Shown piece after piece: positions 5,845 through 54,623 of a stretch of 64,000 bases of DNA; within the stretch, counting starts at the first letter, position 1; each line of letters opens with the position of its first letter. Under the pieces are notes generated by a model. The model did not search any database and was not told where the DNA came from. It saw nothing but the letters and a program-made list of their open reading frames with translations. The stretch lies in NCBI GenBank assembly GCA_964587855.1, contig CAZPLT010000002.1, positions 6,676 through 70,675 on the forward strand. Direction: 5' to 3'. A program made the position numbers and the translations under genes. This DNA is from an uncultured Muribaculaceae bacterium (GTDB lineage Bacteria; Pseudomonadota; Alphaproteobacteria; Rs-D84).

Positions 5845-8030
5845 TATTTTTTCTCCTCGGCCCCAGTTTTTTGATTGATTCCGACCATAGATAGACGGGT
5901 TTTGCCACGTTTATCCACGCCCAGATATTTTACAAATACTTTGTCGCCTTCTTTTATTTTGGCGTCTTCTATTTTATTCAGACGTTCGCCGGTTATTTCA
6001 GAAATATGAACCAATGATTCAAAATTTCCATTCATAATTTTAACGAACAGACCAAAATCTTTCATTCCAGATACAACGCCTTCATAAATCATACCAACTT
6101 CGGGTTCGGCTGTAATGGTTTTGATTCTGGCCATTGCGTTTTCAGCGTCAGCCTTGTCCGTTGCCATAATTTTAACCGTTCCATCGTCTGTTAAATCAAT
6201 ACTGGTATTGGTTTCTTTGGTCAATGCTTGGATAACACTGCCACCCTTACCAATAACATCGCGGATTTTATCAGGATTTATTTTCATTGTAAAGGTCTGT
6301 GGAGCATATTCAGACAATTGTTTACGTGGAGCTTTAATAGCCTTGGTCATAATTCCCAAGATATGCATACGTCCATCTTTTGCCTGTGCCAATGCTTGTT
6401 TCATAATTTCAAAAGTAATAGATGTGATTTTAATGTCCATCTGCAAAGCAGTAACGCCCTTGTCAGTACCAGTTACTTTGAAATCCATATCACCCAAATG
6501 ATCTTCGTCGCCCATAATATCGGTCAAGACTTCGAATTCTTCACCTTCTTTAATCAGACCCATTGCTATACCTGCAACTGGACGTGTCATTGGGACACCG
6601 CCATCCATCAAAGCCAAAGTTGTTCCACAAACTGTTGCCATAGACGAACTGCCATTGGATTCCAAGATGTCGGATACTGCGCGAATTGTATAATCAAATT
6701 GTTCTTTGGATGGCAGCATAGGATTGATTGCGCGCCATGCCAATTTCCCATGCCCAATTTCACGACGTTTTGGTGCGCCAATACGGCCAATTTCACCAAC
6801 AGAAAATGGCGGAAAATTATAATCCAAGATAAAGCGATCATCAAATGCTCCGTCCAAAGATTCCCCAGGACGTGCATCTTTATCATTACCCAATGTCAAT
6901 GTAACCAAAGCCTGGGTTTCGCCGCGTGTAAATAACGCCGAGCCGTGTGTACGTGGCAGTACGCCAACTTCAACCTCAATTGGGCGAACAGTTTTAGAAT
7001 CACGACCATCAATACGTGGTTTTTTATCCAAAATATTACGACGCATAATACGTGCAGTAATAGATTCTATAATTTCGCCAGCCCATGCTTTCTGTAAATC
7101 AGTTGCATCCGCAATTGATGCACGTGCATCTGTTTTAATAGCGTCCAATGCGGCATATCTTTCCAATTTAGCGGAAATTTTTAATGCTTCGCCAATTTGG
7201 TCAGCAAAGCGTTCCAAATCAGATTCAATTGCCTTGTATTCTGGTGCGCGTTCAGCAACATCCCATGCGGCATTTCCAGCTTTTTCTTTTAATTCGTTAA
7301 TTGCGTCAATGACAGGCTGGAATGCATCAAAACCGAATTTAACAGCACCCAACATTTCGTCTTCGGACAATTCGCCTGCTTCGGATTCAACCATTAAAAC
7401 GCCATCTTTGGTTCCAGCAACAACCAATTCCAATTCAGAATCTACAATTTCTTTCTTAGTTGGATTTAACAAATATTTGCCATTTGCATAACCAACACGT
7501 GCTGCACCAATTGGCCCCATAAAAGGAACCCCAGAGATAGCCAATGCAGCAGATGATGCAATCATTGCCAATATATCTGGTTGGTTTTTCTTGTCATATG
7601 AAAAACAAGTAACAACAATCTGGGTGTCATTAGTAAATGTTTCTGGAAACAATGGACGAATTGGACGATCAATTAAACGTGAAATCAATGTTTCGTTTAA
7701 TGAAGATTTTCCTTCGCGACGATCGCGGCTGCCTGGTATACGACCAGCAGACGCAAATTTTTCTTGGTAATCTACGGTCAATGGAAAGAAGTCTTGGCCT
7801 TCTTTGGTTTCGCGTGAAGATACAACAGTTGCAAGAACCATTGTTTCACCCATTTTGGCCATAATACTGCCGGTTGCTTGTTTAGCAAAACGACCAGTTT
7901 CCAATATTAATTTTTCACCACCAAATTCAATTTCTGAACGGATTGGATTGTTCAAGACATTTTTGGGAGTCTTGTCCCCAAGTAAACCGAATAACATTTT
8001 TTTCCCTTTGTTTAAATTTTTATTCAGCAA
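5844..8030 (-). CDS. pnp: Polynucleotide phosphorylase
   Basis: 728-aa ORF with full PNPase architecture (two RNase PH domains, KH, S1). The N-terminus has [22 protein letters not shown]. The true start may be the internal Met at about 7997. Confidence 0.95.
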
Positions 8031-8444: not shown

Positions 8445-9315
8445 TAATAATCCTTTTTGGTTTTAAGACACCGTTTTCAATTATTCCAATTCCAATAAAT
8501 TCATTATCAGAATAAACACGAACAGAACCATTTTCTGTAAAAGCAGATCTAGTTAAAAAGCCGCCGTGCTGAAACAATGCAGAGTCATTGTTATTCAGAT
8601 TTAAAACCGGAATGTCGCCCAGTCCAAAATCCGCCCGCTGCAAATAATCATTTATCGCAGTGCGCCCGCCATTATTAAACAAATTTTCCAGAAAATCAAG
8701 TGATACCGCATTTTTTATATCAAATCCATTTGTTTTAGTGCGACGAATAGCGGTGCAGGTGGCAATTGTACCGCATTTTTTTGCAATATCACGCGCCAGC
8801 GAGCGGACATAAGTACCACTAGAACACCGAACAATAAATGCAGAATCAGTTATATTTTTCAGGCTATAAATATGAACCAGACGAGATTTAATATCTAATT
8901 TCTCGCCAGCCAATGCCAGTTTATATGCCCGCTGTCCACCCACATGCACGGCGCTGAAATTTGGTGGCACTTGGTCATATTCCCCAATAAATTCATTACA
9001 AATCTTTTGCAAGGTTTCTTTTGATGGGATTTTCAAGCTATCGTCTTGTTTAATAATGCGCCCCGTTATGTCCAGGGTATCCGTTTCGGTTCCCCATTGA
9101 ACAGAAAATTCATATTCTTTATGTGCATCTGGAATATAAGGGATAACTTTGGTTGCTTCATCCAGTGCGATTATTAACAGACCAGATGCCATTGGATCCA
9201 ATGTTCCAATATGTCCAAATGTTTTTGCGCCGAACATACGCGCAATGCGTCCCCCTGCCCCGCGACTGGAAATGCCACTTGGTTTATCAAGTAAAATAAA
9301 TCCTGAATTTTTCAT
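8434..9315 (-). CDS. truB: tRNA pseudouridine-55 synthase TruB
   Basis: [14 protein letters not shown] catalytic Asp motif; 293 aa. Confidence 0.9.
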
Positions 9316-39549: not shown

Positions 39550-40267
39550 ATATACTGAAAACAAAATAGTAAAAACTTATCAGTGTGATAAAAATGGGTT
39601 TATTCGCCCAGTTATTCTGATGAATTATTTGCAAGACGTTGCAGATACTCATGCTGAAATTTTGGGTGCTGGACGCGTGTTTTGTATAGAAAAAGGAATT
39701 GCGTGGGTTGTAACTCATTATTTGGTGGATATTATTCAGTTGCCACGTGAATCTGACGAGCTGGTTATTACAACCTGGCCGGCGGCACATGGCCCGTTAA
39801 AAGCGATTCGTGATTTTGAGATTCATGGGACGGACGGACGATTGATGATTCGTGCCACCAGTCAATGGATTTTGATAAATACTGCTTTGCGTATACCTCT
39901 GCGATTAAGCGAGTATCTGCCCAGTGATTGGGCATCTGGGATTGGGCGCGCTTTGGATTTGGTATTTGAAAAATTCCCAGATTTCGAACCAAATCAAAAA
40001 GACAATAAATTTTTGGTGCGTTATGATGATGTTGATATAAATCAGCATGTAAATAATGCAATCTATGCAAAATGGGCAACAGAAAGTGTTGATTTTAATT
40101 TTCGAGATACGCACAATCTGCGCAAAATATATCTGAACTTTAAAAAAGAAATACCATTTGATACAAAAGAAGCAGTTGTCGAAACGGCAATTGATGGATT
40201 CGTCAGTCGACATAAAATAAAAACCAGTGATATAGAAAACGCGAATGTAATCTGTGAATGGAAATAA
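39539..40267 (+). CDS. Acyl-ACP thioesterase family protein
   Basis: Tandem hot-dog fold with acyl-ACP thioesterase similarity; 242 aa. Confidence 0.75.
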   Translation: MNSKYTENKIVKTYQCDKNGFIRPVILMNYLQDVADTHAEILGAGRVFCIEKGIAWVVTHYLVDIIQLPRESDELVITTWPAAHGPLKAIRDFEIHGTDGRLMIRATSQWILINTALRIPLRLSEYLPSDWASGIGRALDLVFEKFPDFEPNQKDNKFLVRYDDVDINQHVNNAIYAKWATESVDFNFRDTHNLRKIYLNFKKEIPFDTKEAVVETAIDGFVSRHKIKTSDIENANVICEWK

Positions 40268-40359
40268 AGCCATTTTTATTTTGCGTGGGCTGTATTTTTT
40301 TATTTTTTTATAAATAATTATATGTTATAATTTACACAAAGAGTTTTTTAGGGGGAATT

Positions 40360-41655
40360 ATGAAAAAGATATTATTTACATTTATGGGTTTGCTTATTTG
40401 CGTCAATGCACATGCGTTGGATGGCAAAAGTTATGCAGCTGGTGCGGCAACAGTTATTTTAGCACCAGTGGTTTTGGCTACTGTCACACCGGCATTCGCA
40501 GTATTAGCCCCAACGGTTGCAGTAACGGGTATGGCAGCTGTAACGACAGGTTTGGCAGCTGTTGGTACAGCTTCTATAATTGCTTTGCCCGTTGCGACAA
40601 CAATTTTAACTATTAAAGCGATTCAGAAAATAGATGATGACCATTTTGTTGATGTAGAAGGAAAAAATCTTGGTTGTAATACAGCAGATGACACACATGT
40701 AGATGTTGGTTATACTGCCTTTTGTCAGTATCCACAAACAAATACTTGTATGAATACAAATATAGGTAAAACTAATCAGGATTCAAGTTTGGGTTCAAAA
40801 ATTTCTTCTATCGGGGGAAACGATGAATGGGAAGGATGTAAAAACACATATTGTAGGGGATATAGTGGAAGTGTACCGGAAAATGCAATCCCTGTTATGG
40901 ATAATTCATCATATAAATGCTGGTGGTGGTCTTGTGTTAATGGTTTTACTCAAAAAGGTGACAGATGTGCTTGTATTGGAAAAAAACCATATATTACGAA
41001 AGATGCAAAAGGTATAACGGTTTGTGCTGAATGTACTGGTAAAAATCAATATCGTACAAAAAACGCCGAAGGTGAAACTATTTGTGCGGTTTGTAATGAA
41101 CCTTATATATTGGACGGTGAAAAATGTATAGAAAAACCAAAACCTGTAAATCCTGTAAAACCAAAACCTGTAAATCCTGTAAAACCAAAACCAGATGATA
41201 AAACAAAACCAGATGATAATAAAACTGACAATCGCACTGAATGCGACAAAGGTACAGCTGGTTATGTGCTTTTTGAAGGTAGTTGTATAAAAACAGATGA
41301 AAAAGATGCGATTGAGAAAAAACGCGAGGAAGAACATATTGCTAAAGAAAAGGCAGATAAAATAGCATCCTTGCAGACACAAATTGCTGCTTCGGCCAGC
41401 GCTTCTGAAGAAATAGAGACAAAGTATTTATCTGGCAAAAAATCTGTTTGGAAAAATGCTGATGGCGAGTTTAATAAATCACGTCTGGCTTCGGATTCTA
41501 TTGCTGGTGTTGTTCTTGGTGCCTCAGGTGGGTTGATTACTCACAGTATTATAAAAAAGAATCAGATTAAAAAAGGGCTGGAAGATGTTGCTTGCTTCGT
41601 AGGCGATTCTGAAGTAGCCGAATATGGTGATGAATTTACAATAGGATTGAATTAA
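40360..41655 (+). CDS. Secreted Cys-rich protein with Pro-Lys tandem repeats
   Basis: Signal peptide, many Cys, PKPVNPVK x2 and KPDD repeats, coiled-coil-like C-terminal part. No family recognised. Confidence 0.7.
   Translation: MKKILFTFMGLLICVNAHALDGKSYAAGAATVILAPVVLATVTPAFAVLAPTVAVTGMAAVTTGLAAVGTASIIALPVATTILTIKAIQKIDDDHFVDVEGKNLGCNTADDTHVDVGYTAFCQYPQTNTCMNTNIGKTNQDSSLGSKISSIGGNDEWEGCKNTYCRGYSGSVPENAIPVMDNSSYKCWWWSCVNGFTQKGDRCACIGKKPYITKDAKGITVCAECTGKNQYRTKNAEGETICAVCNEPYILDGEKCIEKPKPVNPVKPKPVNPVKPKPDDKTKPDDNKTDNRTECDKGTAGYVLFEGSCIKTDEKDAIEKKREEEHIAKEKADKIASLQTQIAASASASEEIETKYLSGKKSVWKNADGEFNKSRLASDSIAGVVLGASGGLITHSIIKKNQIKKGLEDVACFVGDSEVAEYGDEFTIGLN
41134..41220 (+). repeat. In-frame coding tandem repeats (24-bp unit x2, then a roughly 18-bp unit x2)
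   Basis: aaaccaaaacctgtaaatcctgta is repeated twice, followed by two copies of aaaccagatgata-like units inside the secreted-protein gene. Confidence 0.8.
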
Positions 41656-41713
41656 AAGTCCTATTTCGCAGAAAGCGGGGTTTGGACATAGTTTTTTAGG
41701 AGAAGGTGTTAAA

Positions 41714-42469
41714 ATGAAAAGATATTTAATTTGTTTATGTTCTCTGTTGGTCACTGTTCCGGTAATTGCCGCGCAAACTAACAGGACCAAACCAGCTAAT
41801 TACGACGAGGAACGTGTCGGGACCAAGGGGAATGTGACAACGGCACACCAAGTCCGTGTGGGAACGACTTCGTCCTCGTCAACAACATCTGTGACGTCAT
41901 CGACATCAAGTCAGGTTGATACGCGTGAAGAGGAAAAAGAAGCCTGTACAAGTCGTAACTCGGGCGCAGGCAATACTTTTGTTTGGGCGTCTAAAACAAA
42001 TAGTAGCAACTATGAATCAATGGTTGAAGATACTGAAAAACCAAAAAACAACGCTTGCTTTGTTCGTGTGACGTTAAAATCTAAAAACCCAAAAATTCAA
42101 ATTGAGGAATCTTCCAAATACTTTGTGATAGGGGAACAAGAGACTTGCGGCAGTTGGGAAAAAGAAGAAGATATAAAGCAACAGATCCTTGATTCTAAGA
42201 AAAGTGGTCTAGTCGGCGGAACAATCGCTGGCGCTGTTGGTGGTGCCGTGTTGGGCGTAGGCGCTATGGAATTGTTTGGAAACAAGGCAATTGGTGGCAA
42301 AGTTCAGGGACAAAAAGCTTTGTCTGACGAACAATTACTGCGTTCTCAGATGTTGGCAGCAGGCAAGGAAGATGAATGGAAAAAATACGAAGAATCAAAA
42401 AAAGAAAGGTCTAGTCTTTGCGAGGAGCTGCATGCCCTTGGGGGTAAAGCACCAGAATGTGACGAATAA
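41714..42469 (+). CDS. Secreted Ser/Thr-rich hypothetical protein
   Basis: Signal peptide, Ser-rich low-complexity N-terminal region, Gly-rich segment. No family recognised. Confidence 0.65.
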   Translation: MKRYLICLCSLLVTVPVIAAQTNRTKPANYDEERVGTKGNVTTAHQVRVGTTSSSSTTSVTSSTSSQVDTREEEKEACTSRNSGAGNTFVWASKTNSSNYESMVEDTEKPKNNACFVRVTLKSKNPKIQIEESSKYFVIGEQETCGSWEKEEDIKQQILDSKKSGLVGGTIAGAVGGAVLGVGAMELFGNKAIGGKVQGQKALSDEQLLRSQMLAAGKEDEWKKYEESKKERSSLCEELHALGGKAPECDE

Positions 42470-42499
42470 AAAAACGCGCCATTTGGCGCGTTTTTTTTA
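42468..42499. terminator. Bidirectional rho-independent terminator shared with rpmH
   Basis: aaaaaaacgcgccatttggcgcgtttttttt. Confidence 0.75.
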
Positions 42500-42501
42500 T
42501 C

Positions 42502-42649
42502 TTACAGCAGATACTGCCACGCGGACACGTCCCTTGGCACGACGACGATTCAATACGTCACGTCCGCCCTTAGTTGCCATTTTTTCACGAAAACCATGGG
42601 TTTTTACCCGACGAGTTTTCGAAGGTTGATATGTTCTTTTGGTTGCCAT
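42502..42649 (-). CDS. rpmH: 50S ribosomal protein L34
   Basis: Minus-strand 44-codon ORF translating to [49 protein letters not shown]. It is absent from the ORF track because it is under 60 aa. Confidence 0.92.
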
Positions 42650-42762
42650 TTCTAAATCTCTTTCTTTTTAATTGCTAGGGCATTTAACCACAGGTTTTGC
42701 TGATTTGCAAGTAAAATAATGCGATTGTTTATATCATCATCCACGTTTAAAAAACTGGTAAT

Positions 42763-43125
42763 TTATATAGATTTATCATTTTTAAGATGATTTAACAGTA
42801 ATAAAGTCGCATAGTTGGATTCTTTCGCAACGAATTTACACGATCCGTCTCCATATGTGGCAAAACATGTAAGTTCTTTATCATTTGGCGAAGGTTTGTT
42901 GTGATTAAATCTTTTATCAAGATTTTCGCCATATAAAGATTCATCAAGCTTTATCCCATAAATATGATAATAGACAGCTTTGTTTGTAACAGTACTGACT
43001 GTTTTTTTTATTTCTCTGGACGTTATGACAAATCTGCTATAAGAAACATTACTGCTGAATTCTATGGAATAGCCAATTTTATATAAAAATTTAGTTGGTT
43101 TTGTTCTAACTTTTTTAAATACCAT
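42763..43125 (-). CDS. Hypothetical protein, paralog 1 of a tandem pair
   Basis: 120 aa. It shares a conserved block with the neighbouring 115-aa ORF (YGIKLDESLYGENLDKRFNHNKPSPNDKEL vs YGLELNTKLYGPDLDKWFKNRKPSPKDKSL). Confidence 0.6.
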   Translation of the reverse strand: MVFKKVRTKPTKFLYKIGYSIEFSSNVSYSRFVITSREIKKTVSTVTNKAVYYHIYGIKLDESLYGENLDKRFNHNKPSPNDKELTCFATYGDGSCKFVAKESNYATLLLLNHLKNDKSI

Positions 43126-43288
43126 TTAAAAATCTCTTAATTTGCCATACAAAGTTGTTAATTATTTCTTTCTTTCCAGTATACCCAACCATGTTAAAAA
43201 TTCGGTAAATAGGCACCATACGAATAAAATCGCAGCAATTGTTCCAATCGGACCAAGTAAAATCATAGGTTCCATTTTTACACTTTTG

Positions 43289-43636
43289 TTATTTGGATAT
43301 TTTGTTCAAAGATTTTGTTAGTATAGCTTTTTGTACGACTGCGGCGGTTTCACCAAAAAAACGATCTTTACCATTGTTTGAAATAGCAAAAAATTTAAGG
43401 CTTTTATCTTTTGGGGAAGGTTTGCGATTTTTAAACCATTTATCTAAATCTGGGCCGTATAATTTAGTATTTAATTCTAAACCATAAAGTTGGTAACTTA
43501 AACGCTCTCCCGCAGCATTTTTAAAAGATTTTATGTCTGCAGACTCTATAACAAAGTAACAATGTGAAATACGATGGTTAAATGATATTGAATCACCAAT
43601 TTCGTGAAATAATTCGCCAGATTTTTTATTTTGCAT
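43289..43636 (-). CDS. Hypothetical protein, paralog 2 of a tandem pair
   Basis: See paralog 1. The gene lies in the gyrA upstream region on the opposite strand. Confidence 0.6.
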   Translation of the reverse strand: MQNKKSGELFHEIGDSISFNHRISHCYFVIESADIKSFKNAAGERLSYQLYGLELNTKLYGPDLDKWFKNRKPSPKDKSLKFFAISNNGKDRFFGETAAVVQKAILTKSLNKISK

Positions 43637-43798
43637 TTTTATACCTTTTTATTATTTATTGACAAAGACACTATAAACATAAAACTGTATTTGTCAATAA
43701 TTTTATTTATATAAAAACCGCATTTTTTTTGGATTATTTTCTTGCCCGAAACTTAGCAATTTGCTATCTTTATAACGCTAAAAAACGGAGTATTTTTT

Positions 43799-46480
43799 AT
43801 GTCTGAAATTAATGAAGTTTCCCCAGAAATCAAAGTTCCAATCAGTGTTCTTGAACAAGAAATGCGTGGCAGTTTTTTGAACTATGCAATGTCGGTTATT
43901 GTTGATCGCGCTTTGCCCGATGTTCGTGATGGTTGTAAACCTGTGCATCGTCGTATTTTGTATGTTATGAACGATGTAGCGCCTGCAACGCGTGCAACTG
44001 TAAAATGCGCCCGTATCGTTGGTGATGTTATGGGTAAATACCATCCCCATGGCGACAGCAGTATTTATGACGCGATGGTTCGTATGGGTCAGGATTTTTC
44101 TATGGGTGCATGCTTGGTCCAGGGTCAGGGAAATTTCGGCAGTATGGACGGGGATAAACCCGCCGCTATGCGTTATACCGAAGCAAGATTATCTAAACTG
44201 GGCGGGTCATTAATGGACGATATGGACAAAGATACCATTGAATGGATGCCTAATTTTGACGATACTTTGAAAGAGCCACAGGTTTTACCCGCGAAATTTC
44301 CAAATTTCTTGGTAAATGGCGGCAGTGGAATTGCGGTTGGTATGGCGACAAATGTGCCAACTTATAATTTGGGCGAGGTTTGTGATGGTGTTTTGGCTAT
44401 ATTAAACAATGCCGAAATTACAGATGAAGAATTATTTGGAATTATTCAGGGGCCAGATTTCCCAACGGGCGGGATTATGATGGGGCGTGGCGGCGCATTC
44501 AAAGCGCACACAACTGGCCGCGGCAGTGTGATTGTTCGTGCAAAAACTCATGTCGAGGATATGAAAGAAAAGCAAGCAATCATAGTTGATGAAATTCCTT
44601 ATCAAGTAAATAAAGCTCAGTTGATTATAAAAATTGTAGAGCTGTCCAAAGAAAAACGTATCGAAGGGCTTGGTGAAATTCGTGATGAAACCAGCAAAGA
44701 AGGCGTGCGTATAGTTATCGAATTAAAGCGTGATGCAATTGCTGATGTTGTTCTGAATCAATTATTTCAATACACAGAATTACAAAGCAGTTTCCCAGTA
44801 AATATGATGGCGTTAAATCATGGCCGTCCAATGTTATTTAATGTTCGTGGTGTGTTGGATGCTTTTATTGATTTTCGTATAGATGTTATTCGCCGCAGAA
44901 CTATATTTGAATTAAACAAGGCACGTAATAAAGCACATACTTTATTGGGCTTGTCAGTTGCGGTTGGAAATCTTGATGAAATTATTGCTTTGATAAAAGG
45001 CAGTGAATCGCCCGAGGCAGCACGTCAGGCATTGATATCTCGCAGTTGGAAAGCATCAGATATAGAAAGCTATATCAGATTGATTGATGATCCAAATACC
45101 GAATATGAAAATGGTATGTTCCGTATGAGCGAAGATCAAGCAAAAGCCATCTTGGAATTACAATTACATCGCTTGACCGGATTAGAACGTGAAAAAATTC
45201 ATAATGACTTGGTAGAACTTGGTGCAATTATCAAAGAATTGTTGGATATTTTGGGCAGTTACGAAAGAATTATACAAATTATTCGCGATGAAACATCTGC
45301 GGTTCGTGATAACTGGTCGGTTCCACGCAGAACAATAATTTCTGACGCCGAAGTTGATATGGATATAGAAGATTTAATAGCACGCGAAGATATGGTTGTA
45401 ACAGTTTCAAACACTGGATATATCAAACGTGTTGCGCTGGATACTTACCGCGCACAAAAACGCGGGGGTAAGGGTCGCAATGCAATGACCACCAAAGAAG
45501 ACGATTATGTATCTCAATTATTCGTTGCAAATACTCATACTCCATTGATGTTTTTCAGCAGCAAGGGTATGTGTTATCGCTTGAAAACTTATAAATTACC
45601 AGAATCGGCCGCCAGTGCCAAGGGTCGTCCATTGGTGAATTTATTACCATTGTCTGCGGGTGAAACAATCACGGCAATTTTACCAGTGCCAGAATCTGAA
45701 ACTGGAACATTTTTGATGTTCGCAACCAGCATGGGAACGATTCGCAGAAATGATTTTTCAGACTTTGAAAGCATACGTGCAAACGGAAAAATTGCGATGA
45801 AGTTGGAAGATGGCGAAAGCCTGGTCAGTGTTATGTTGTGCAATGAAAACCAAGATGTATTTTTAAGCACTTATCGTGGTCGCTGCATCAGATTCCCAGT
45901 AAATGAAATTCGCGTATTCCAAAGCAGAAATTCAACCGGTGTTCGCGCAATCAAATTGGGCAAAGACGACAAAATTATCGGTATGGCAATGCTGAATCAT
46001 TCAGACGCTGACGCGGAAACACGCGCAGCATATATCAAGCAAAGCCGCGCGCTGCGCCGCGCAGACGGAGTGGAAGAAGAAGCTGGCGACGAAGAAGAAA
46101 CAACCAGTATTGTTTTGGGCGAAGCAACGATGGCGGATATGGCGCGCGATGAACAATTTATTTTGACCATCAGTGAAAATGGATTTGGGAAACGCACCAG
46201 TTCGTATGAATATCGTTTGACCCATCGTGGCGGTTCGGGTATTACCGCAATTAAACTGGGCGGAAAAAATACAGCGGTCGCGGGCAGCTTCCCAATTGAT
46301 AATGGTCATGATATTATGATGGTGACGGACGGCGGCAAAATTATCAGAACGCCAGCGGACGCGGTTCGTATCGCGGGTCGTTCCACAGCGGGTGTAACAT
46401 TGTTAAAAACAGCTGAAAAAGAACGCGTCATCAGCACCACAGCAATTGAAAAAGAAGAAGTAATTGAAAACGAGGAATAA
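43799..46480 (+). CDS. gyrA: DNA gyrase subunit A
   Basis: 893 aa with GyrA N-terminal breakage-reunion domain (active-site region AMRYTEARL) and C-terminal beta-pinwheel repeats. Confidence 0.97.
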
Positions 46481-46484
46481 TAAT

Positions 46485-47336
46485 ATGTCAGATAATAATT
46501 CAGTAGCTTTAATAGGTAATTTTGATTCGTGTTCTCATATTGATGATGAGGTGGAATACTGGTTTGCTCGAGATTTACAAAAACTCCTTGGGTATGAAAA
46601 GTGGGATAAATTTACAAATATAATAGACAAGGCTAAATTAGCTTGTAAAAACAGTGAGTTATCAGTATTAGACCATTTTCTCCAAGTGGGGAAAATGGTT
46701 GTGATAGGTTCTAGCACTAACAGAGAGATTGAAGATTATAAATTAACAAGATATGCGTGTTATTTAATAGCACAAAATGGAGATTCTGCAAAAAGAGAGG
46801 TAGCCTTTGCTCAAACTTATTTCGCTGTTCAGACCAGGAAACAAGAGATAATTGAACAAAGAATGGCAGAATATGAGAGATTGGCGGCACGTGTAAAATT
46901 ATCTGAGACAGAGAAAGAGCTTGGTTCTTTATCATATGAGCGTGGTGTAGATAGTAGGGGGTTTGCTATTATTCGTAGTAGGGGCGATCAAGCATTATTT
47001 GGCGGATATAATACCAGCAATATGAAGCAACGGCTTGGGATAAATAATGAATCTAGGCCATTAGCGGATTTTTTACCGGCAGTTACCATAAAAGCGAAAG
47101 ATTTAGCTACAGAAATGACAAATCATAAGTTAAAAAATTCTAATTTAAGTGGTTCTGATAAAATCTCTGACGAACATGTAAAAAATAATGCTAGTGTTAG
47201 AAAAGCTCTTACAGATAGCGAAATTTACCCAGAGAAATTGCCACCAGCGGAAGATATAAAAAAAGTTGAAAGTAAAATAAAACGAGAAGAGAAACAAATA
47301 GCTTTATCAAAGACTAAAAAAATTACTAAAAACTAA
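46485..47336 (+). CDS. dinD: DNA-damage-inducible protein D homolog
   Basis: Blocks matching E. coli DinD: RYACYLIAQNGD, AQTYFAVQTRKQE, ALFGGY. The start is taken at MSDNNS. Confidence 0.75.
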   Translation: MSDNNSVALIGNFDSCSHIDDEVEYWFARDLQKLLGYEKWDKFTNIIDKAKLACKNSELSVLDHFLQVGKMVVIGSSTNREIEDYKLTRYACYLIAQNGDSAKREVAFAQTYFAVQTRKQEIIEQRMAEYERLAARVKLSETEKELGSLSYERGVDSRGFAIIRSRGDQALFGGYNTSNMKQRLGINNESRPLADFLPAVTIKAKDLATEMTNHKLKNSNLSGSDKISDEHVKNNASVRKALTDSEIYPEKLPPAEDIKKVESKIKREEKQIALSKTKKITKN

Positions 47337-47388
47337 GTTATATTATATGATTTTAATTTATTAAACACATAGAAACTTAAGGCGTAAT

Positions 47389-47625
47389 ATGTATGAAATA
47401 ATAAAAGATAAAGAATCGGGGCTTTATAGGATAATCAGTGAAATAGAACCACTTGATAAAGAAAACGAAGAGGTGGTTTTATTAAATTCTATGCCCAAAG
47501 CAAGTGTTGTTTCCTTAATTTCGGACGAATTTCGCACGATGATAGATTCTGGATTATGTGATGAAAATTATCGGGATTTTAAGGATAAAATAAGTTTTAT
47601 AAAAACGATAACTTTGGATTTATAA
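47389..47625 (+). CDS. Hypothetical 78-aa protein
   Basis: ORF between dinD and the DpnI-like gene; no similarity recognised. Confidence 0.4.
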   Translation: MYEIIKDKESGLYRIISEIEPLDKENEEVVLLNSMPKASVVSLISDEFRTMIDSGLCDENYRDFKDKISFIKTITLDL

Positions 47626-47626
47626 A

Positions 47627-48397
47627 ATGGAGATAATACCAAGTTTTGATTTAAGTATGGCATGTTGTTACAAAAGCGAATCACAAAAAATTCGGGTTAT
47701 GTCGGAACATTGGGTAAAAGAAAATGCGTTTTGCCCAAATTGCGGTGAAATATTAGAAAAATATCAAAATAATAAACCTGTTGCGGATTTCTTTTGCCCT
47801 AATTGTGGTGAAGATTATGAGTTAAAAAGTAAATCAGGCACATTCGGCGTAAAAGTTTTAGATGGCGCATATAATACTATGATAGAAAGAATAAATAGTA
47901 TTAAGAATCCGAACTTTATGATTATGAATTATTCAGAGTGTTCTATTAGAAATTTTATGGTAATTCCAAAACATTTTTTTACAGATGATATAATAGAAAA
48001 AAGAAAGCCATTATCAGATACTGCACGCAGAGCAGGATGGATTGGTTGTAATATCTTGCTAAATAAAATCCCAAATAGCGGAAAAGTATTTTTTATTAAA
48101 GATTCTGAATTTATTGGAAAAACTGAAATTATAACGGAATATAATAAGGTCAAATTTCTTCAAAATGAATATCAAAAGAAAAGGGGCTGGTTAATAGATA
48201 TTATTGGATTTATAGAAAAACTCAATCAAAAGACATTCAAACTATAAGATATGTATAAATTTGAAAAGGAATTGTATTTAAAACATCCATCTAATAACAA
48301 TATAAAACCTAAAATTAGGCAACAATTACAATATTTAAGAGATAAGGGATATTTGACATTTGATGGCAATGGAACTTATACTACGATAAATAACTAG
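47627..48397 (+). pseudogene. dpnI: DpnI-like methyl-directed restriction endonuclease gene, interrupted by an in-frame TAA at 48245-48247
   Basis: Residues 1-206 align with DpnI (YKSESQKIRVMSEHWV..FCPNCGE, KPVADFFCPNCGEDYELKSKSG, DGAYNTMIERI, RKPLSDTARRAGWIGCNIL). The next 49 codons in the same frame encode the DpnI C-terminal winged-helix segment (DMYKFEKEL..IRQQLQYLRDKGYLTFDGNG). A TAA stop sits where DpnI has Glu. Confidence 0.8.
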
Positions 48398-48407
48398 GGT
48401 AAATGAA

Positions 48408-48791
48408 ATGAATACGGCATTTTTATCTATTAACGATGTATCAAAGCAATTGGATATTCCAGCGCATACTTTGCGCTATTGGGAAAAACAATTTCCAGTT
48501 TCTATAAAGCCCGCAACTGGCGCGGGGGGACGTCGCTATTATCGCCCTGAAACGGTTGCTGCGCTGAAACAGGTTCGCGCTTTGCTGTATGATCGCGGCA
48601 TGACCATTGCTGGTGTTAAAAAGTTAATAAAAGATGGTCAGTTTCTGAATACTGAAATAAACATTTCGGTTGAAAAACCAGTTGGCTTAGCCAAGCCATC
48701 AAAACAAGCCCCAGGGCTGTTTACAAACAGCGCTAATATAGATAAAGCCATAGATTTGCTGGAACAGGCGCGAGCAACCTTGAATTCTTGA
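48408..48791 (+). CDS. MerR family transcriptional regulator
   Basis: N-terminal MerR HTH (LSINDVSKQLDIPAHTLRYWEKQ). Confidence 0.8.
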   Translation: MNTAFLSINDVSKQLDIPAHTLRYWEKQFPVSIKPATGAGGRRYYRPETVAALKQVRALLYDRGMTIAGVKKLIKDGQFLNTEINISVEKPVGLAKPSKQAPGLFTNSANIDKAIDLLEQARATLNS

Positions 48792-48881
48792 ATAATAAAG
48801 CCCGGTTGGGCTTTTTATTTTCCAATTTATTTTATTGTAAATAGTTTTTTTGGGTATAGAATTGTCGGACAAAGGAAAAAA

Positions 48882-49586
48882 ATGAAATCAATTGAAAAAA
48901 TAAGCATTCTGGGGGACTCGATTTCCAAGGGTGTTATATTGGACACTCTTTCGAAAAAATACAAAATATTAAAAGAATCCGCAGCCGATTTATTCAGCAG
49001 CGAAAATAACGTGATTGTAAAAAACTATGCAAAGTTTGGCTGCACCAGTGAAAAAGCGTTGGGGTTGATTGCTGATATAGTAAAAGAAGAAAACAAGCAT
49101 GAAATTATCCTGATAGAATTGGGCGGAAATGATTGTGATTACAAATGGGACGAAGTTGCAAAAGACCCAGAGGCAAATCATCGTCCAAATGTGGAATTAG
49201 AAGACTTTAGATTAAATATTGCCAAGATTATTGAAATTGTAAAGACCAGTGGGCGTGATTTGGCGTTTATGACGTTGCCACCAATTGACGCACAAAAATA
49301 CTTTAATTGGATTACGCGCGGCGATCCGGAAAGAGCCAAAAATATTCTGCGTTTTATAGGTGAAGTAAATTATATTTATCGGCATCAAGAATTATATGCC
49401 ACAGCATTGGAAGAAATTGCAACCCAGAACAAGGTATATAAAATTCCGGTTCGGGCAGGATTCTTGGCAATTCCAAAATATGGCGATTATATTTGTGATG
49501 ATGGAATTCATTTGAATGAGCAAGGTCAAGAAGTAATGAAAAATATATTCAATGATACATATAACAAGTATATAAGTAAAAAATAA
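48882..49586 (+). CDS. SGNH/GDSL hydrolase family protein
   Basis: GDSIS block (ISILGDSISKGV) and downstream SGNH conserved residues. Confidence 0.75.
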   Translation: MKSIEKISILGDSISKGVILDTLSKKYKILKESAADLFSSENNVIVKNYAKFGCTSEKALGLIADIVKEENKHEIILIELGGNDCDYKWDEVAKDPEANHRPNVELEDFRLNIAKIIEIVKTSGRDLAFMTLPPIDAQKYFNWITRGDPERAKNILRFIGEVNYIYRHQELYATALEEIATQNKVYKIPVRAGFLAIPKYGDYICDDGIHLNEQGQEVMKNIFNDTYNKYISKK

Positions 49587-49587
49587 T

Positions 49588-49614
49588 AAAAACCCGCATA
49601 TGCGGGTTTTTTTA
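49588..49614. terminator. Bidirectional rho-independent terminator
   Basis: aaaaacccgcatatgcgggttttttt. Confidence 0.75.
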
Positions 49615-49615
49615 T

Positions 49616-49974
49616 TTACATAACATGAGAAGATAATTTATTTCTTAGTATTGCCATTTCACGATATTTGTCTTCAGTAAAAAGTATGTTCCAAAAAATA
49701 TTTGTTTTTGTATTTTCTGAACAATTTTGATGTTTTTTTATCAATTCTAATAAAGGAGGAACATTTATATTTTGTTCGGCTAAGGTACCAAGTTCATTAT
49801 CTGACATAAACGGATTTTTCGCCAATCCCATTAAAATTTCATAATTAGTAGAGCCTAAAAAAGTTAAACGTTGCTCTTTGTCCGCGGTTGTCATTGCTTG
49901 TTCTTTCAAATCCTTATATAAAGGATTTCCTTTGTTATTCTTATTAATACTACAATTAAGAATACTACTCATTT
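49616..49974 (-). CDS. Hypothetical protein
   Basis: ORF from the track (149 aa). The start is more plausibly the internal Met (MSSILNCS). No similarity recognised. Confidence 0.4.
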
Positions 49975-50580
49975 TTTTCACCTTTGATTTGTATCGGTCC
50001 TTTTTGGTCAAAAACAAAGGCCGAAGAATATAAATAGTAGAATAGACAAAGCTAACTTTCAACAAATTTATAAATTTGTCGAAAAATCGTTTAAAATCAA
50101 TTAAATAAAATGAAATTTATAAACCAATGTGGCAGAAAAAGACTCGTCTGTGCAATCTATAAGTGGGGAAGGTTGGTTTGTATTCATTTTTTTTGATCGC
50201 ATACGAAAGTTACAAAGATAAATCTTGGTAAAAATTATAGCCCAAATATAAAGAATATTCCTTTTCAGAAATTTTCTTTTTATATGTATCCCCAGGATAT
50301 GGCGTGCTGTAAAAAGTCCTTAGATCTTCGAATCCAACCCCAATATAAAAATTAGTATATTTTGAATGGTAAGTATAACTGGCAGAATAACCCAGCAAGT
50401 TTTTATCTTGATACGATTGCTCGGTATCATAGTATTTGTATAAAGGCATAAATTTCAGAATATGTCTTTTATATAAATATAATCTAATCTCTCTCCTTTT
50501 TTCCAGTTGTAATTATACATTAATTTTTAATATAAAGAAATTGATTTATTTCCTAGAACAAAAGGCAGATTAAAAAGTTT

Positions 50581-50655
50581 TGGCAGTCCCAACGGGAATC
50601 GAACCCGTGTTTTCAGAATGAGAATCTGGCGTCCTGACCGCTAGACGATGGGACC
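50581..50655 (-). tRNA. tRNA-Glu-like, apparent anticodon CUC, with C27-A43 mismatch in the anticodon stem
   Basis: Minus-strand cloverleaf GGTCCCATCGTCTAGCGGTCAGGAC..anticodon loop TTCTCAT..GGGTTCGATTCCCGTTGGGACTGCCA. The D-arm is tRNA-Glu-like. Confidence 0.7.
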
Positions 50656-50743
50656 ATTCAGCAGGCTTTTACCAGCTTATAATGAAAACCTGGTGTTTTC
50701 AAGAATAATTATAAAAAAATCGCACCCAAACAGGTGCGCAAAT

Positions 50744-50919
50744 TTTTTGGTTGGGCCACACGGGCTGTAATTCCCAACGCTTCGCTTTTGGGCCCCTTTC
50801 GTGTCGTAAGGCTCAAACTTAGTAAGACTCGTTTTCGCCAACTATCCACTCCGAACCGCGCGGTTCTGTCTTCCGCAAAACTCAACCAAAATAAAAACGC
50901 CACAAGGGCGTTTTAATTT
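50744..50919 (-). ncRNA. Candidate small RNA or integration scar. A roughly 170-nt minus-strand segment is bounded by two terminator hairpins and ends in a tRNA-like 3-prime end (…GCCCGTGTGGCCCAACCA) that duplicates the tRNA-Gln 3-prime end
   Basis: Terminator hairpins at 50896-50917 (aaaacgcccttgtggcgttttt) and 50709-50745 (aaaaaatttgcgcacctgtttgggtgcgattttttt). The 19-bp direct repeat ttttggttgggccacacgg occurs at 50744-50762 and 50917-50935. No ORF of 60 aa or more on the minus strand. Confidence 0.35.
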
Positions 50920-50993
50920 TGGTTGGGCCACACGGATTCGAACCGCGATAAAGAGAACCAAAATCTCTTGTCCTACCGTTAGACGACGCCCCA
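50920..50993 (-). tRNA. tRNA-Gln (anticodon UUG)
   Basis: Minus-strand TGGGGCGTCGTCTAACGGTAGGAC..stem AGAGA/TCTCT with loop TTTTGGT..GGTTCGAATCC..TGGCCCA A CCA. U1-A72 is typical of bacterial tRNA-Gln. There is one G-G mismatch in the acceptor stem. Confidence 0.75.
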
Positions 50994-51046
50994 AAAGCTT
51001 CAAAATTATAACTAACTAATATAAAAAATCAATAGAAAATAATTAT

Positions 51047-51667
51047 CTACAAATGATGCGTTAATAAGCTTGTATGAAATGCTCCCATTTGTTTTTTAAA
51101 CTCTGTTAGCATTTTTTTGTAATTTTGTTCTGTTGATTCAATTATTGTTCTGCTGTTATTTGTTATAATATCCATACGAAAATCATTTACTCTTGAAACA
51201 GCCGTAATATTATGCGTTTTTTCTAAATTTTCAGAAGCTCCTTCTAGAACAACACAAAGCTTTTGTATCTCTTGAATAGTTTTTAAAACGTTTTGGGTGA
51301 TAAGCTCCGCACCTATGCTGCCACCGTATTCACGAATATCATAAAATCTTTCACAAAACGCATATGTTTCCTTAATAGCAGTTTTATAAGTAGGCTGGAC
51401 AAGTTCCTTGACACCTTGTAATAATACAGGATCTTGTTTGTGAAGTATCATGTTTGAATTCACTTGCTTTGCTGATACTAATGCTGTATTCATTTTTTCG
51501 GCATCTGATTTTATCAGATCCAGCATATTTGATTCTTTTTTGTAAAGTCCAGTTGATGAAAAACGTAATAAAAAATTGATTATAGTTTTATAATCAGAGT
51601 GATATCTGCCATTAATATTTTTAAGTAGAGTCATCAGAATATCCTTTTTGGCTATTCTCTCTTCCAT
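51047..51667 (-). CDS. Hypothetical protein
   Basis: 206-aa ORF; no similarity recognised. Its start overlaps the end of the upstream IMPase-like gene. Confidence 0.5.
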   Translation of the reverse strand: MEERIAKKDILMTLLKNINGRYHSDYKTIINFLLRFSSTGLYKKESNMLDLIKSDAEKMNTALVSAKQVNSNMILHKQDPVLLQGVKELVQPTYKTAIKETYAFCERFYDIREYGGSIGAELITQNVLKTIQEIQKLCVVLEGASENLEKTHNITAVSRVNDFRMDIITNNSRTIIESTEQNYKKMLTEFKKQMGAFHTSLLTHHL

Positions 51668-52362
51668 TTATTATTTGATGCCACCAATTCGGCATTCATT
51701 TCGACTGCTCCCCCAGCCTCGTTAATCAATAATTCGCCAGCACATATTTCGGCGTAATCCAATGGATGTGAAATAAAACCATCAAATTTCCCGGCGGCAA
51801 CCCATGCAAGATCCAAAGCTGGACAACCAGTAATACGGACATCCCCATTAGCTTTGAAATCATCAGAGCCCAAGCCCAATGTTAAATCCGCGGATTCTTT
51901 TATTCCGGAAACCTTGATTCGCGCAGAATGAAATGCGGAAAATGCGAATGCACCACATCCGGCCTCGGCATAATATAATCTTTCATCAATTGGGCTGTAT
52001 ACCAATGCAATTTTTGTTTCATTGTTTGATCGCAAAGCCAACGAAATTGCAAAATGTGGATTTCCACGTACAAAATTTTTAGCCCCTGAAAATGCCAAAA
52101 CAAATTCATCCCGTCCATCACCCTCATGGGAATAGTTTGGTGTTAAAACACCAGCGTTTGGGCGAACCAGAGTTAAATTACGTAAAATGGATTCTTCTAT
52201 TCTTATTGCGGCTTTTTTTACAAAGTCGCGGGCACCAGAAAGAGATTGTTGCAGGTTTTCAACTTCCCCAAAATCATGACGTAATCCAGCCCCAGTTTGC
52301 GCTAATGCTGCAAACATTTTATTTAATTCCGAAGAGCCTTTGATCAGATTTTCTTTTTTCAT
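51652..52362 (-). CDS. Inositol monophosphatase family protein with degenerate metal-binding motif
   Basis: IMPase-family blocks (GNPHFAISLAL, VYSPIDERLYYAEAGCGAF). The expected DPIDGT block appears as LAFSGA. Confidence 0.6.
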   Translation of the reverse strand: MKKENLIKGSSELNKMFAALAQTGAGLRHDFGEVENLQQSLSGARDFVKKAAIRIEESILRNLTLVRPNAGVLTPNYSHEGDGRDEFVLAFSGAKNFVRGNPHFAISLALRSNNETKIALVYSPIDERLYYAEAGCGAFAFSAFHSARIKVSGIKESADLTLGLGSDDFKANGDVRITGCPALDLAWVAAGKFDGFISHPLDYAEICAGELLINEAGGAVEMNAELVASNNKWKRE

Positions 52363-52384
52363 TTCTTGTGCTTTTAAAAATAAA

Positions 52385-52404
52385 AGCCAGCGTGAACGCT
52401 GGGC
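52385..52404. terminator. Hairpin terminator after rpmE
   Basis: agccagcgtgaacgctggct followed by a T/A run. Confidence 0.6.
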
Positions 52405-52407
52405 TTA

Positions 52408-52617
52408 TTAAAATTTGAACCCGTCGAATTTTTTCTTAAAGTCAGCGGCACGTTGACCCTTGTCTGCAGTGGCACGTTGACCAGTCCAAGCAGAGTGGTT
52501 CAGATTATCAACAGATAAAACCAAATCCTTGTTCGCGGACGAGAACATTTTTATTGTTTTGCCATCTGTCCGGGTAACTTTGATTTCATGGTATTCTGGA
52601 TGAGTGTTTTTCTTCAT
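52408..52617 (-). CDS. rpmE: 50S ribosomal protein L31
   Basis: MKKNTHPEYHEIKV N-terminus typical of L31; 69 aa. Confidence 0.9.
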   Translation of the reverse strand: MKKNTHPEYHEIKVTRTDGKTIKMFSSANKDLVLSVDNLNHSAWTGQRATADKGQRAADFKKKFDGFKF

Positions 52618-52688
52618 AGTTAAACCTTTTTTTAGCTTGCAAATTATACAGGGAAATTTTGTAAAATCAAGTAAGAATAGATATTAAT

Positions 52689-53213
52689 TTAATATCCGCC
52701 GACACAACCCAGGTAAAAATTACCCGAAGATTCTATAAAGTTTTGGAATTTACCAGTATTTTTTCCAGAAAACAGGGCCAAAACAGTTCCGGATTCGGTT
52801 GCCAGCATATCAGCTATACTTACGCCAAAGCTGGATACTTTCTTGAAAAATCCAGGGGTTGGAAAGATTTCTGCAACAAAAAGTTTGTTTTGATCTTTGT
52901 TTTCGTTTATTTGATCTTTGGCGATCGCCATCAAAGTGCAATCTTTGGTCAGGATGATTTTTTCGCAAACTTGAGCTTGTCCACCCAATAATTCTCCCCA
53001 CCAGCCAGGTACACCAGAAAACACAGGATAATAGAGAATAGCGTCAGGAGTGGTCTTGAAAAATTCAACCATATCGAAATCTGTGGGTGTCAAACAAGGC
53101 ATTTCCCCATGACGATCTGAAATAATCCGTCTGGCCGATTGATAGGTGTCCGAATCGCGGGTCCCTCTGGTGGGCCAGAATAAAAACGGGGAACGTATGG
53201 TTTTATAAGTCAT
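52689..53213 (-). CDS. Conserved hypothetical protein
   Basis: 174-aa ORF; no confident family assignment. Confidence 0.5.
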   Translation of the reverse strand: MTYKTIRSPFLFWPTRGTRDSDTYQSARRIISDRHGEMPCLTPTDFDMVEFFKTTPDAILYYPVFSGVPGWWGELLGGQAQVCEKIILTKDCTLMAIAKDQINENKDQNKLFVAEIFPTPGFFKKVSSFGVSIADMLATESGTVLALFSGKNTGKFQNFIESSGNFYLGCVGGY

Positions 53214-53279
53214 TGCTGGAATTATATCAGATTTTAAAGCTTGATTAAAGTCGGTATAGTAAAATAAATTACTTGACTT

Positions 53280-54623
53280 TTAGTCCTTCTTTATATTTTT
53301 CCACCAAGCTTTAACATTACTGGTTATTTTACTGAAATCTTTCTTTGCATCATCATAAAGCTTGGATGGTATTTTGACGTCACTGAACAAAGCCTGAGTT
53401 AATGCTGGTATAGCATTCATAAAGATTGCCAAGAATAATCCCATCATTATAATTGTTACCAGACTATCATTATTCATAAACAGGCCATCTATTAAAATTT
53501 CAGCCTTGTTTTCAATTATTGCAGTTTGTAAAACACTGGCGCCTTGCCATTTACCAAAAGCCGAATTCAAGAATAACACTGAAAATGCAGTAAATATCCC
53601 AACCATTGCGATACCCAATGTATTTTGAACCACTTTATCAATAATACCCTTGATATTCTTTTTCCCATCTGGCAGCACCATCCATGTTTTTCCATCCGCA
53701 TCTTGGAACAGCCATGCCAGTAACATTAACGGCAACATAACCAGTCCCATCCCTAATTCTATGAAAGTTTGTAAGAAATAAAGTGGGATTGGCAGCAGGG
53801 CAAAGAAAAATAAAACGACAATTAAAAGCCCAGCTAAAAACATAACTACATTCGGAAAAATTGGAATGTTAAATATCAGCTTGTACATATATTTATCGTT
53901 AAATGCCATATTCATAATTGTCCAACCCGCTGTCATTCCCAGACCGGTCATTTGATGGACTTGACCTATTTGGCATGCCAGATTATGGCGAAGTTTTGGT
54001 GAAAATGCGCCGTTTTTAGATGCTGCTTTATCCGCACTAGAAGGATCCATAACAGCGGTTGCAATCAGGCAAGTTTCAAAAGAATTTTCATTATTTACAT
54101 CTGGGGCCATTCTTACATCCACCGAATGAGAAAGTGCCAATCCAACATTAAAGATAGGTTCTACGGCTGTGCTGGTTATAAACCTGGGCAATGGGAACGC
54201 TAATAACAGTGTTATAAAAGTAAGTTTAAATAAATGTGTTCCCAGTTTTCCAGAAAAATTCCATGCATCAGGAGATTTTGGTTCCCCGTCTATTCCTAGA
54301 TACCCCTTTAATACTTCCCAACCAAAATATACAGCAGTCAGGGCAAAAGCTATCGGAATACAAACCTGACCAATAGCTGAATAAATACGTGGTAAAACAT
54401 CTGATAAAACCAATATTATATCATTAAACATCCCACATGACCAACAACTGGAAAAGAAAGATAGAGCATCTGCCATATCAACAGGTGACATAGAGCGATA
54501 AATGGAAAATCCAGCAATTGTTACGCCACCAGCAATTGCGCCTATTGCGAGTGGAGCAATTGCCCCTGCGGAAAATGGCAAGAAAGAAAGAAAGATAATC
54601 CAAAAATTTTTTAGTTTGTTCAC
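53280..54623 (-). CDS. Large polytopic membrane protein, member 1 of a five-gene array (VirB6/TrbL-like?)
   Basis: 447 aa. Signal-peptide-like N-terminus, at least 6 TM segments, a central loop, and a K-rich C-terminal tail. It is transcribed divergently from the four following genes. Confidence 0.75.
   Translation of the reverse strand: MNKLKNFWIIFLSFLPFSAGAIAPLAIGAIAGGVTIAGFSIYRSMSPVDMADALSFFSSCWSCGMFNDIILVLSDVLPRIYSAIGQVCIPIAFALTAVYFGWEVLKGYLGIDGEPKSPDAWNFSGKLGTHLFKLTFITLLLAFPLPRFITSTAVEPIFNVGLALSHSVDVRMAPDVNNENSFETCLIATAVMDPSSADKAASKNGAFSPKLRHNLACQIGQVHQMTGLGMTAGWTIMNMAFNDKYMYKLIFNIPIFPNVVMFLAGLLIVVLFFFALLPIPLYFLQTFIELGMGLVMLPLMLLAWLFQDADGKTWMVLPDGKKNIKGIIDKVVQNTLGIAMVGIFTAFSVLFLNSAFGKWQGASVLQTAIIENKAEILIDGLFMNNDSLVTIIMMGLFLAIFMNAIPALTQALFSDVKIPSKLYDDAKKDFSKITSNVKAWWKNIKKD

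Follow-up and report, generated by a model that had tools for sequence, protein, structure and literature searches.

Between gyrA and the gene for a MerR-family regulator, a 64-kb stretch of DNA from an uncultured gut bacterium (contig CAZPLT010000002.1; the whole stretch is hereafter the window) carries a gene of the DpnI family of methyl-directed restriction endonucleases that is interrupted by one in-frame TAA. We consider it probable that this is plain gene loss, in which an acquired DpnI gene was recently cut short by the TAA following long selection. The same gene carries two further, independent lesions in a related species, and the locus provides a natural example of a methyl-directed restriction gene that was strongly selected and then lost in three independent ways in two sister species.

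Homology and the stop codon

The interrupted gene lies on the + strand in two pieces that share a reading frame. Its 5' part (47627..48247) encodes 206 amino acids (aa) and ends in the premature stop (48245-48247), which is read directly from the sequence and its translation. After a single GAT codon, an ATG at 48251 opens a 48-aa open reading frame (ORF) that leaves the frame of the 206-aa ORF unchanged (from 48248) and ends in TAG (48251..48397). Translation across the stop reads ...KTFKL-stop-DMYKFEKEL....

Both domains of DpnI are represented. The 206-aa piece matches the catalytic-domain profile DpnI (PF06044) over positions 4-182 of 183 (E 4.3e-77; 258.3 bits against a gathering cut-off of 26.7) and the PADLOC profile mREase_II (E 4.4e-79), and it also matches positions 2-23 of the winged-helix profile DpnI_C (PF17726). 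The 48-aa piece matches DpnI_C at positions 25-69 (E 5.2e-20), which makes the C-terminal similarity significant in a profile search. Because DpnI_C positions 2-23 precede the stop and 25-69 follow it, the stop takes up exactly one profile position, without an insertion or deletion. Residues 7-252 of the read-through protein align with residues 8-255 of DpnI (4esj; E 3.6e-73), and in this alignment the stop coincides with the E of FTL-E-DMYRF, that is, with Glu207. A preliminary description of the sequence had proposed a DpnI homolog in both domains with a single in-frame TAA between them, and these alignments bear it out. It had also attributed the stop to a single GAA to TAA change. The one-codon character of the lesion stands, but GAA is one of several one-step routes to it: homologs vary here among D, N, E, S and Q, and both alleles of the related species have the codon deleted, so that the ancestral codon may have been GAA or another.

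We judged conservation in an alignment of the window protein with DpnI and 116 homologs, taking residue roles from the structural literature (PMC3424567). The catalytic residues E25, D53, E64 and K66 and the four zinc-binding cysteines of the Cys4 site are all kept in the window copy, as are Q18, R21, R126, R135 and W138 in the catalytic part, and R231 and Q232 of the recognition helix (KIRQQLQ) are conserved in the 48-aa piece. Of the 105 alignment columns with a family conservation of 90% or more, the window protein differs at six, five of these being exchanges of one hydrophobic residue for another; this lies within the range of departures seen across the family (mean 2.7, maximum 16). The wing is atypical, with R248, present in 75% of homologs, replaced by N, and L253 by T. 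Besides the TAA, no second lesion is present in the window gene.

An uninterrupted single ORF is the norm in this family, found at 66 of 80 related loci, and most of the others end at contig ends. Such members carry both domains on one polypeptide of about 255 aa, which the TAA at codon 207 breaks in the window. We class the window gene, from its predicted protein, as a truncated member of the DpnI family and do not file it as a working one. Recoding of the TAA was considered and rejected: TAA is the usual stop codon here (18 of 27 ordinary stops in the window), and the tRNAs of the window are ordinary.

No relative with an intact DpnI gene at the gyrA–merR locus was found. The nearest full-length DpnI proteins among 5.8 billion proteins are 63% identical, JGI metagenome contigs offered nothing closer than 59% overall identity, and none of these lies between gyrA and merR. 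A single sample accounts for all occurrences of the window's own MerR and DpnI proteins. For the ancestral enzyme of the window we infer, from homology, cleavage at Gm6ATC. A tblastn search of the 64 kb with E. coli Dam gave nothing better than a match of E 0.024 inside mutS.

Parallel lesions and selection history

A second species (L002, also represented by L019), whose gyrA is 87% identical to that of the window, carries two damaged alleles of the same gene. In L002 the order is gyrA, a NUDIX gene, a gene of 189 aa, the 48-codon DpnI tail and merR. The catalytic domain is gone, DNA homology to the window begins exactly at the ATG of the tail, and the tail is identical to the 48-aa piece of the window at 45 of 48 residues (94%). 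Another strain of this species, L178, with a merR that differs by 1 nucleotide (nt) in 381, has gyrA, the 189-aa gene, p78 (a small gene that precedes DpnI in the window as well), DpnI codons 1-84 fused in frame to IINN-stop, and merR.

Comparison of the two strains shows the origin of each allele. The sequence 5' of the L002 tail is identical to that 5' of p78 in L178, through ATGTATAAA, a 9-mer that encodes both the start of p78 (MYK) and DpnI codons 209-211 (MYK). The L002 allele is therefore a deletion between two 9-bp ATGTATAAA direct repeats, which joined DpnI codon 209 to the start of p78, and through which the L002 tail acquired the ribosome-binding site and start codon of p78. The L178 allele is a separate, in-frame internal deletion at a 7-nt microhomology, ATACTAT. 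The two alleles together indicate that a full-length p78–DpnI module existed recently in the related species and was destroyed twice.

Two other features of L002 were observed at and beyond this locus. The 189-aa gene lies between the copies of a perfect 38-bp direct repeat, ATGAATAAACCATATCGTCTTTATTGTGAAGATTGTTT (7326-7363 and 7935-7972; also in L003 and L019), which opens a short ORF, MNKPYRLYCEDC...; the repeat is not in the window. Downstream of merR, a GDSL hydrolase of 234 aa in the window (48882-49586) is represented in L002 by a 78-aa in-frame fusion (8613-8849) of its first ~66 and last ~12 residues, an internal deletion in the same style as those in DpnI.

The preserved regions of the gene record strong constraint before these events. 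For codons 1-84, compared between the window and L178, nonsynonymous divergence (dN) is 0.048, synonymous divergence (dS) 0.863 and their ratio (dN/dS) 0.055; for codons 209-256, compared between the window and L002, the values are 0.030, 0.525 and 0.057. Joined, the two regions show 33 changes at 71 synonymous sites and 13 at 325 nonsynonymous sites (binomial P 2e-15), with dN 0.041, dS 0.725 and dN/dS 0.057. For the same species pair, gyrA gives 0.072, 1.08 and 0.067, and merR 0.178, 1.52 and 0.117; p78 gives 0.198, 0.639 and 0.31 between the window and the related species. DpnI was thus constrained as tightly as gyrA through nearly all of the divergence, of which the neutral share for DpnI is at most about 6%, or roughly 17% with sampling error. 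Given this ratio between species, the TAA and the two deletions must be recent and independent. The proposal in the preliminary description that the loss is recent is thereby supported quantitatively, the low ratio being joined by the lack of a second lesion and the retention of functional residues, and the clade has seen three independent losses, that in the window among them. Its accompanying suggestion of acquisition followed by silencing is strengthened by the two further lesions.

Such decay is found in other hosts. Different samples of an unrelated lineage (L009-L012, about 3431-4201) have one DpnI gene disrupted by mutation of Trp to stop, of Arg to stop, or by a frameshift, so repeated independent loss of DpnI is not peculiar to the window clade. 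The lineage (L009-L012, L176-L177) is seen in many samples, and its broken DpnI adjoins a DpnD-PcfM gene.

The gyrA–merR junction and its block

A gyrA scan of species-representative genomes returned 80 relatives, all uncultured gut Alphaproteobacteria around Candidatus Enterousia, with gyrA 78-92% identical to that of the window (best 92%). Junction counts cover 80 genomes, namely the window and the 79 relatives carrying both genes. In 74 of the 80, the gyrA stop lies at most 31 nt from the merR start (median 21), and L015-L017, the nearest relatives, have the gyrA end overlapped by the ATG of merR. The G+C content (GC) of the block, 0.306, compares with 0.425 for gyrA, 0.432 for merR and 0.378 for the whole window. 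The short gap, the overlap in the nearest relatives and the low GC of the block together identify it as an accessory insertion at a conserved junction, much as first proposed. Three of the records (L014, L015 and L016) are titled 'uncultured Muribaculaceae bacterium' and share the gyrA–merR synteny, with gyrA 90-92% identical to that of the window; such titles on alphaproteobacterial gyrA point to a wrong label or contaminated bins.

Inserts between the two genes are confined to 6 of the 80 genomes, all on the + strand. They measure 1927 nt in the window, 1292 nt in L019/L002, 714 nt in L064, 448 nt in L014 (a NUDIX gene), 347 nt in L042 and 340 nt in L087, and their contents across the six genomes comprise NUDIX, the gene of 189 aa, another of 104 aa, a signal-peptide protein of 186 aa, a lipoprotein and the window block. 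From this pattern, the gyrA–merR junction of this gut clade is a recurrent landing site for small co-oriented cassettes.

Within the window, four closely packed + strand ORFs occupy the interval between the gyrA stop at 46480 and the merR start at 48408. To their left is gyrA (43799..46480, +; an 893-aa ORF), and to their right merR (48408..48791, +; Pfam MerR_1, E 5.8e-21), followed by a terminator-like hairpin (48797..48814, +) found by sequence scan; the + strand scan gave no terminator-like site between the gyrA stop and this hairpin. A scan of 40000-54000 for RNA families found two tRNAs and nothing else, and a search for direct or inverted repeats bounding the block gave no convincing pair. 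Inside it, a 21-nt direct repeat (17 of 21 identical; common sequence TTGGATTTATA) occurs at 47607-47627, before the DpnI start, and at 48197-48217, within the gene. This pair is the same kind of microhomology as produced the deletions in the related species. GATC is found 112 times in the whole window against 224 expected (Markov), that is, at half the expected frequency, and TCGA is similarly low (71 against 137); the 1.9-kb block holds a single GATC, at 46986. Upstream of gyrA, on the - strand, are two paralogous small ORFs (42763-43125 and 43289-43636; 120 and 115 aa) that share ...YG.(K/E)L...LYG..LDK.F...KPSP.DK.L..FA..., have no Pfam match and lie in DNA of locally low GC (about 0.29-0.32).

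The first gene of the block (46485..47336, +; 283 aa) begins 5 nt past the gyrA stop and encodes a DinD-like protein with a Bro-N domain (Pfam Bro-N, E 3.4e-11). It passes the NCBIfam DinD equivalog NF008573 with 339.6 bits (cut-off 242), residues 11-276 aligning with profile positions 11-284 of 288, which confirms its initial description as a DinD homolog. It also matches the PADLOC defence-candidate profile PDC-S13 (E 4e-111) and phrog_8036 (E 4.4e-88). The 500 nt 5' of the gene contain no LexA box of the form GTTC-N7-GTTC or CTGT-N8-ACAG, and the clade's own operator may differ. The related species has no DinD at the locus, where the unrelated 189-aa gene takes its place, and among 56 assessable unrelated loci a DinD homolog lies directly 5' of DpnI in two. 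Since it is so rarely adjacent and is absent from the related species, DinD is a neighbour within a defence-type block and not a fixed partner of DpnI; the conserved partner is p78. Two unrelated metagenome contigs (L166, 1945-3558, and L117) do carry an intact DinD homolog, 54% identical, with an intact 255-aa DpnI 3 nt downstream, so the pairing recurs occasionally.

The second gene, p78 (47389..47625, +), encodes an acidic orphan protein of 78 aa (isoelectric point 4.4), and its stop overlaps the DpnI start (TAAAATG). It has no match in Pfam, NCBIfam, PADLOC or PHROG. A single homolog (P0136, 68% identical) was found among 1.84 billion representative proteins, and this lies in L178, at the same position and with the same overlap with the DpnI start. 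An AlphaFold2 (AF2) model of p78 has a predicted local distance difference test score (pLDDT) of 66, and a fold search with the predicted structure gave no match at E <0.8.

Fate of the truncated gene and comparison with known systems

Gene loss probably proceeded as follows. A horizontally acquired defence-type block, made up of the DinD-like gene, p78 and the DpnI type IIM gene, would have entered a normally overlapping gyrA–merR pair in an uncultured gut alphaproteobacterium related to Candidatus Enterousia. The p78–DpnI module, common to the related species at the same spot, was held under strong purifying selection for most of the divergence, and such selection argues that it once encoded a working endonuclease, which by homology would have been directed at Gm6ATC and would have cut incoming Dam-methylated DNA. 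A recent point mutation would then have produced the TAA at codon 207, after which the full-length two-domain enzyme could no longer be made; what was left would be a 206-aa protein comprising the entire catalytic domain plus one helix from the winged-helix domain, followed by the 48-codon tail. With the related species having lost its copy by the ATGTATAAA repeat deletion and the ATACTAT in-frame deletion, we take the TAA for the initial step towards losing the gene, in a clade in which the enzyme may now be dispensable or costly.

Several observations weigh against this account. In the gyrA tree the window groups with L017 and L014-L016, all of which lack the DpnI block, and L019 is the outgroup; because the closest relatives (L017, L015 and L016) are without the block, vertical descent would need at least two clean losses, and the alternative is transfer between lineages. 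The dS of DpnI (0.73) is somewhat below that of gyrA (1.08). The truncated protein keeps all of the DpnI catalytic domain that is active in isolation (PMC3424567), and its activity may be reduced rather than lost. The ATG lies 3 nt past the stop, where translation of the tail by reinitiation is possible, and the window species is seen in one sample only.

We regard it as possible, if doubtful, that the 48-codon tail has been kept because it serves some purpose itself, whether as a small winged-helix protein or by carrying a promoter for merR after its separation from gyrA. The 48-aa piece corresponds, in the winged-helix domain, to helices 2 and 3 together with the wing, and a single-sequence AF2 model (pLDDT 71) predicts a helix-turn-helix and a hairpin. 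In L002 the tail survives alone, with its frame intact and a Shine-Dalgarno-like AAGG before it, but the ATGTATAAA repeat deletion explains both the breakpoint at the ATG and the ribosome-binding site; likewise, selection acting on the gene while it was full-length accounts for its dN/dS of 0.057, a value that codons 1-84 share. A stand-alone conserved tail gene had initially been favoured on account of its survival alone in L002, this ratio and the start of homology at the ATG, and was rejected once L178 revealed the repeat deletion as its origin and codons 1-84 proved equally constrained. Another apparently stand-alone tail, which starts from the same Met in L174, is a truncation remnant, DpnI homology extending about 10 codons upstream of the ATG.

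The possible role as promoter carrier draws on a sigma-70-like site inside the 3' fragment (48353..48382, +; TTGACA, an 18-nt spacer and TATACT), 26 nt ahead of the ATG of merR. With 11 of 12 consensus positions matched, it is the best + strand site in 43500-49800. The same hexamers occupy the same position in L002 (8103-8132), they encode residues seldom seen in the family (T244, 3%; T252, 2%), and none of 80 other DpnI genes scores above 9 of 12 at its 3' end. Sites of 11/12 lie 5' of merR in three of the six insert-bearing genomes (the window, L002 and the L064 insert) and in none of the 74 others (Fisher P 2.4e-4), which suggests that long inserts uncoupling merR from gyrA bring or evolve a promoter. 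Against such a use, L178 has deleted nearly all of the tail, including the -35 hexamer, and is left with a 9/12 site and an intact merR; moreover, the scan scores a match to the consensus only.

Less likely still, and in our view unlikely, is that the gene, though truncated, still functions. Its 206-aa product would then be a methyl-directed endonuclease that lacks the winged-helix domain, and the 48-aa piece, made by reinitiation at TAA-GAT-ATG, may re-join the dangling first helix or compete for Gm6ATC. In DpnI, residues 1-182 form the catalytic domain and 183-254 the winged-helix domain, a type IIE-like effector (PMC3424567; PMC4117772). On its own, the catalytic domain cuts Dam-methylated DNA in vitro and leaves unmethylated DNA uncut; the winged-helix domain by itself binds Gm6ATC, and an excess of it prevents cleavage (PMC3424567). 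The window protein has a complete catalytic domain with all key residues conserved, a nearby restart codon, a tail predicted to form its helix-turn-helix and hairpin alone, and no second lesion. However, the isolated DpnI catalytic domain was obtained in very low yield (PMC3424567), and the window fragment carries an orphaned helix in addition. The ATG at 48251 has no Shine-Dalgarno sequence before it in the window, a TAA that simply arose recently would just as well leave the gene free of further lesions, and null alleles in the related species point to relaxed or negative selection on the enzyme in the clade. Clear null alleles in the sister species are also the reason that we favour plain gene loss, which we hold to be more likely than a still-active truncated enzyme. 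The word 'inactivated' in the preliminary description holds for the full-length enzyme, which the TAA abolishes, and may go too far for activity, as the catalytic domain is complete (PMC3424567).

The two preceding possibilities could be combined, so that the stop re-wired the system into a stand-alone methyl-directed nuclease with a reinitiated 48-aa tail acting in trans, as partner or as Gm6ATC competitor, while the DNA of the tail served as a promoter restoring merR expression after its uncoupling; we think this improbable. That the TAA is a sequencing or assembly error in an intact gene is very improbable: the lesion is a single base in a species from a single sample, and the Logan reassembly of run SRR8925824 may draw on the reads behind the deposited contig, but these assemblies from different software are 100% identical over 47000-48500, TAA included, consensus substitution errors are rare, and the same gene is being inactivated in the sister species.

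Taken by itself, plain gene loss at this locus is a routine case of an accessory restriction gene caught just after its disabling mutation, well documented and of a familiar type. The triple independent loss and the gyrA–merR hotspot lift it slightly above routine. One nonsense codon and two microhomology deletions fit the view of a quick gain and loss of type IIM/IV enzymes in step with changing methylation of incoming or host DNA. The cassette hotspot may also help to annotate these poorly known metagenome-assembled genomes.

The closest characterized counterpart of the window gene is R.DpnI of Streptococcus pneumoniae (type IIM/IIE; PDB 4esj and 4kyw; PF06044 and PF17726, the 'Dam-replacing' family). 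The two share the two-domain layout from end to end, the PD-(D/E)XK residues, the Cys4 zinc site, the DNA-contact residues, and R231 and Q232. Unlike R.DpnI, the window gene has a stop at the Glu207 position that splits the winged-helix domain after its first helix, an atypical wing (R248 to N, L253 to T), an orphan 78-aa gene in place of DpnD as its upstream partner, and an alphaproteobacterial host. The dam-replacing protein (drp) locus of Neisseria meningitidis, which gave the Pfam family its name, is a strain-variable accessory gene of the DpnI family at a chromosomal site; in contrast to drp, the window gene is inserted between gyrA and merR, and the window has no sign of dam replacement. 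The first gene of the block resembles E. coli DinD (NF008573) and PDC-S13 in its full-length match above the equivalog cut-off. It differs from E. coli DinD in having no LexA-box-like site 5' of it, in its position 5 nt from gyrA, and in not being kept with DpnI in the related species. The decaying DpnI genes of other lineages (L009-L012 and L174-L177) occur in unrelated hosts and at unrelated loci, some with a DpnD-PcfM neighbour, and share with the window the pattern of one gene struck by different nonsense, frameshift or deletion events in close genomes.

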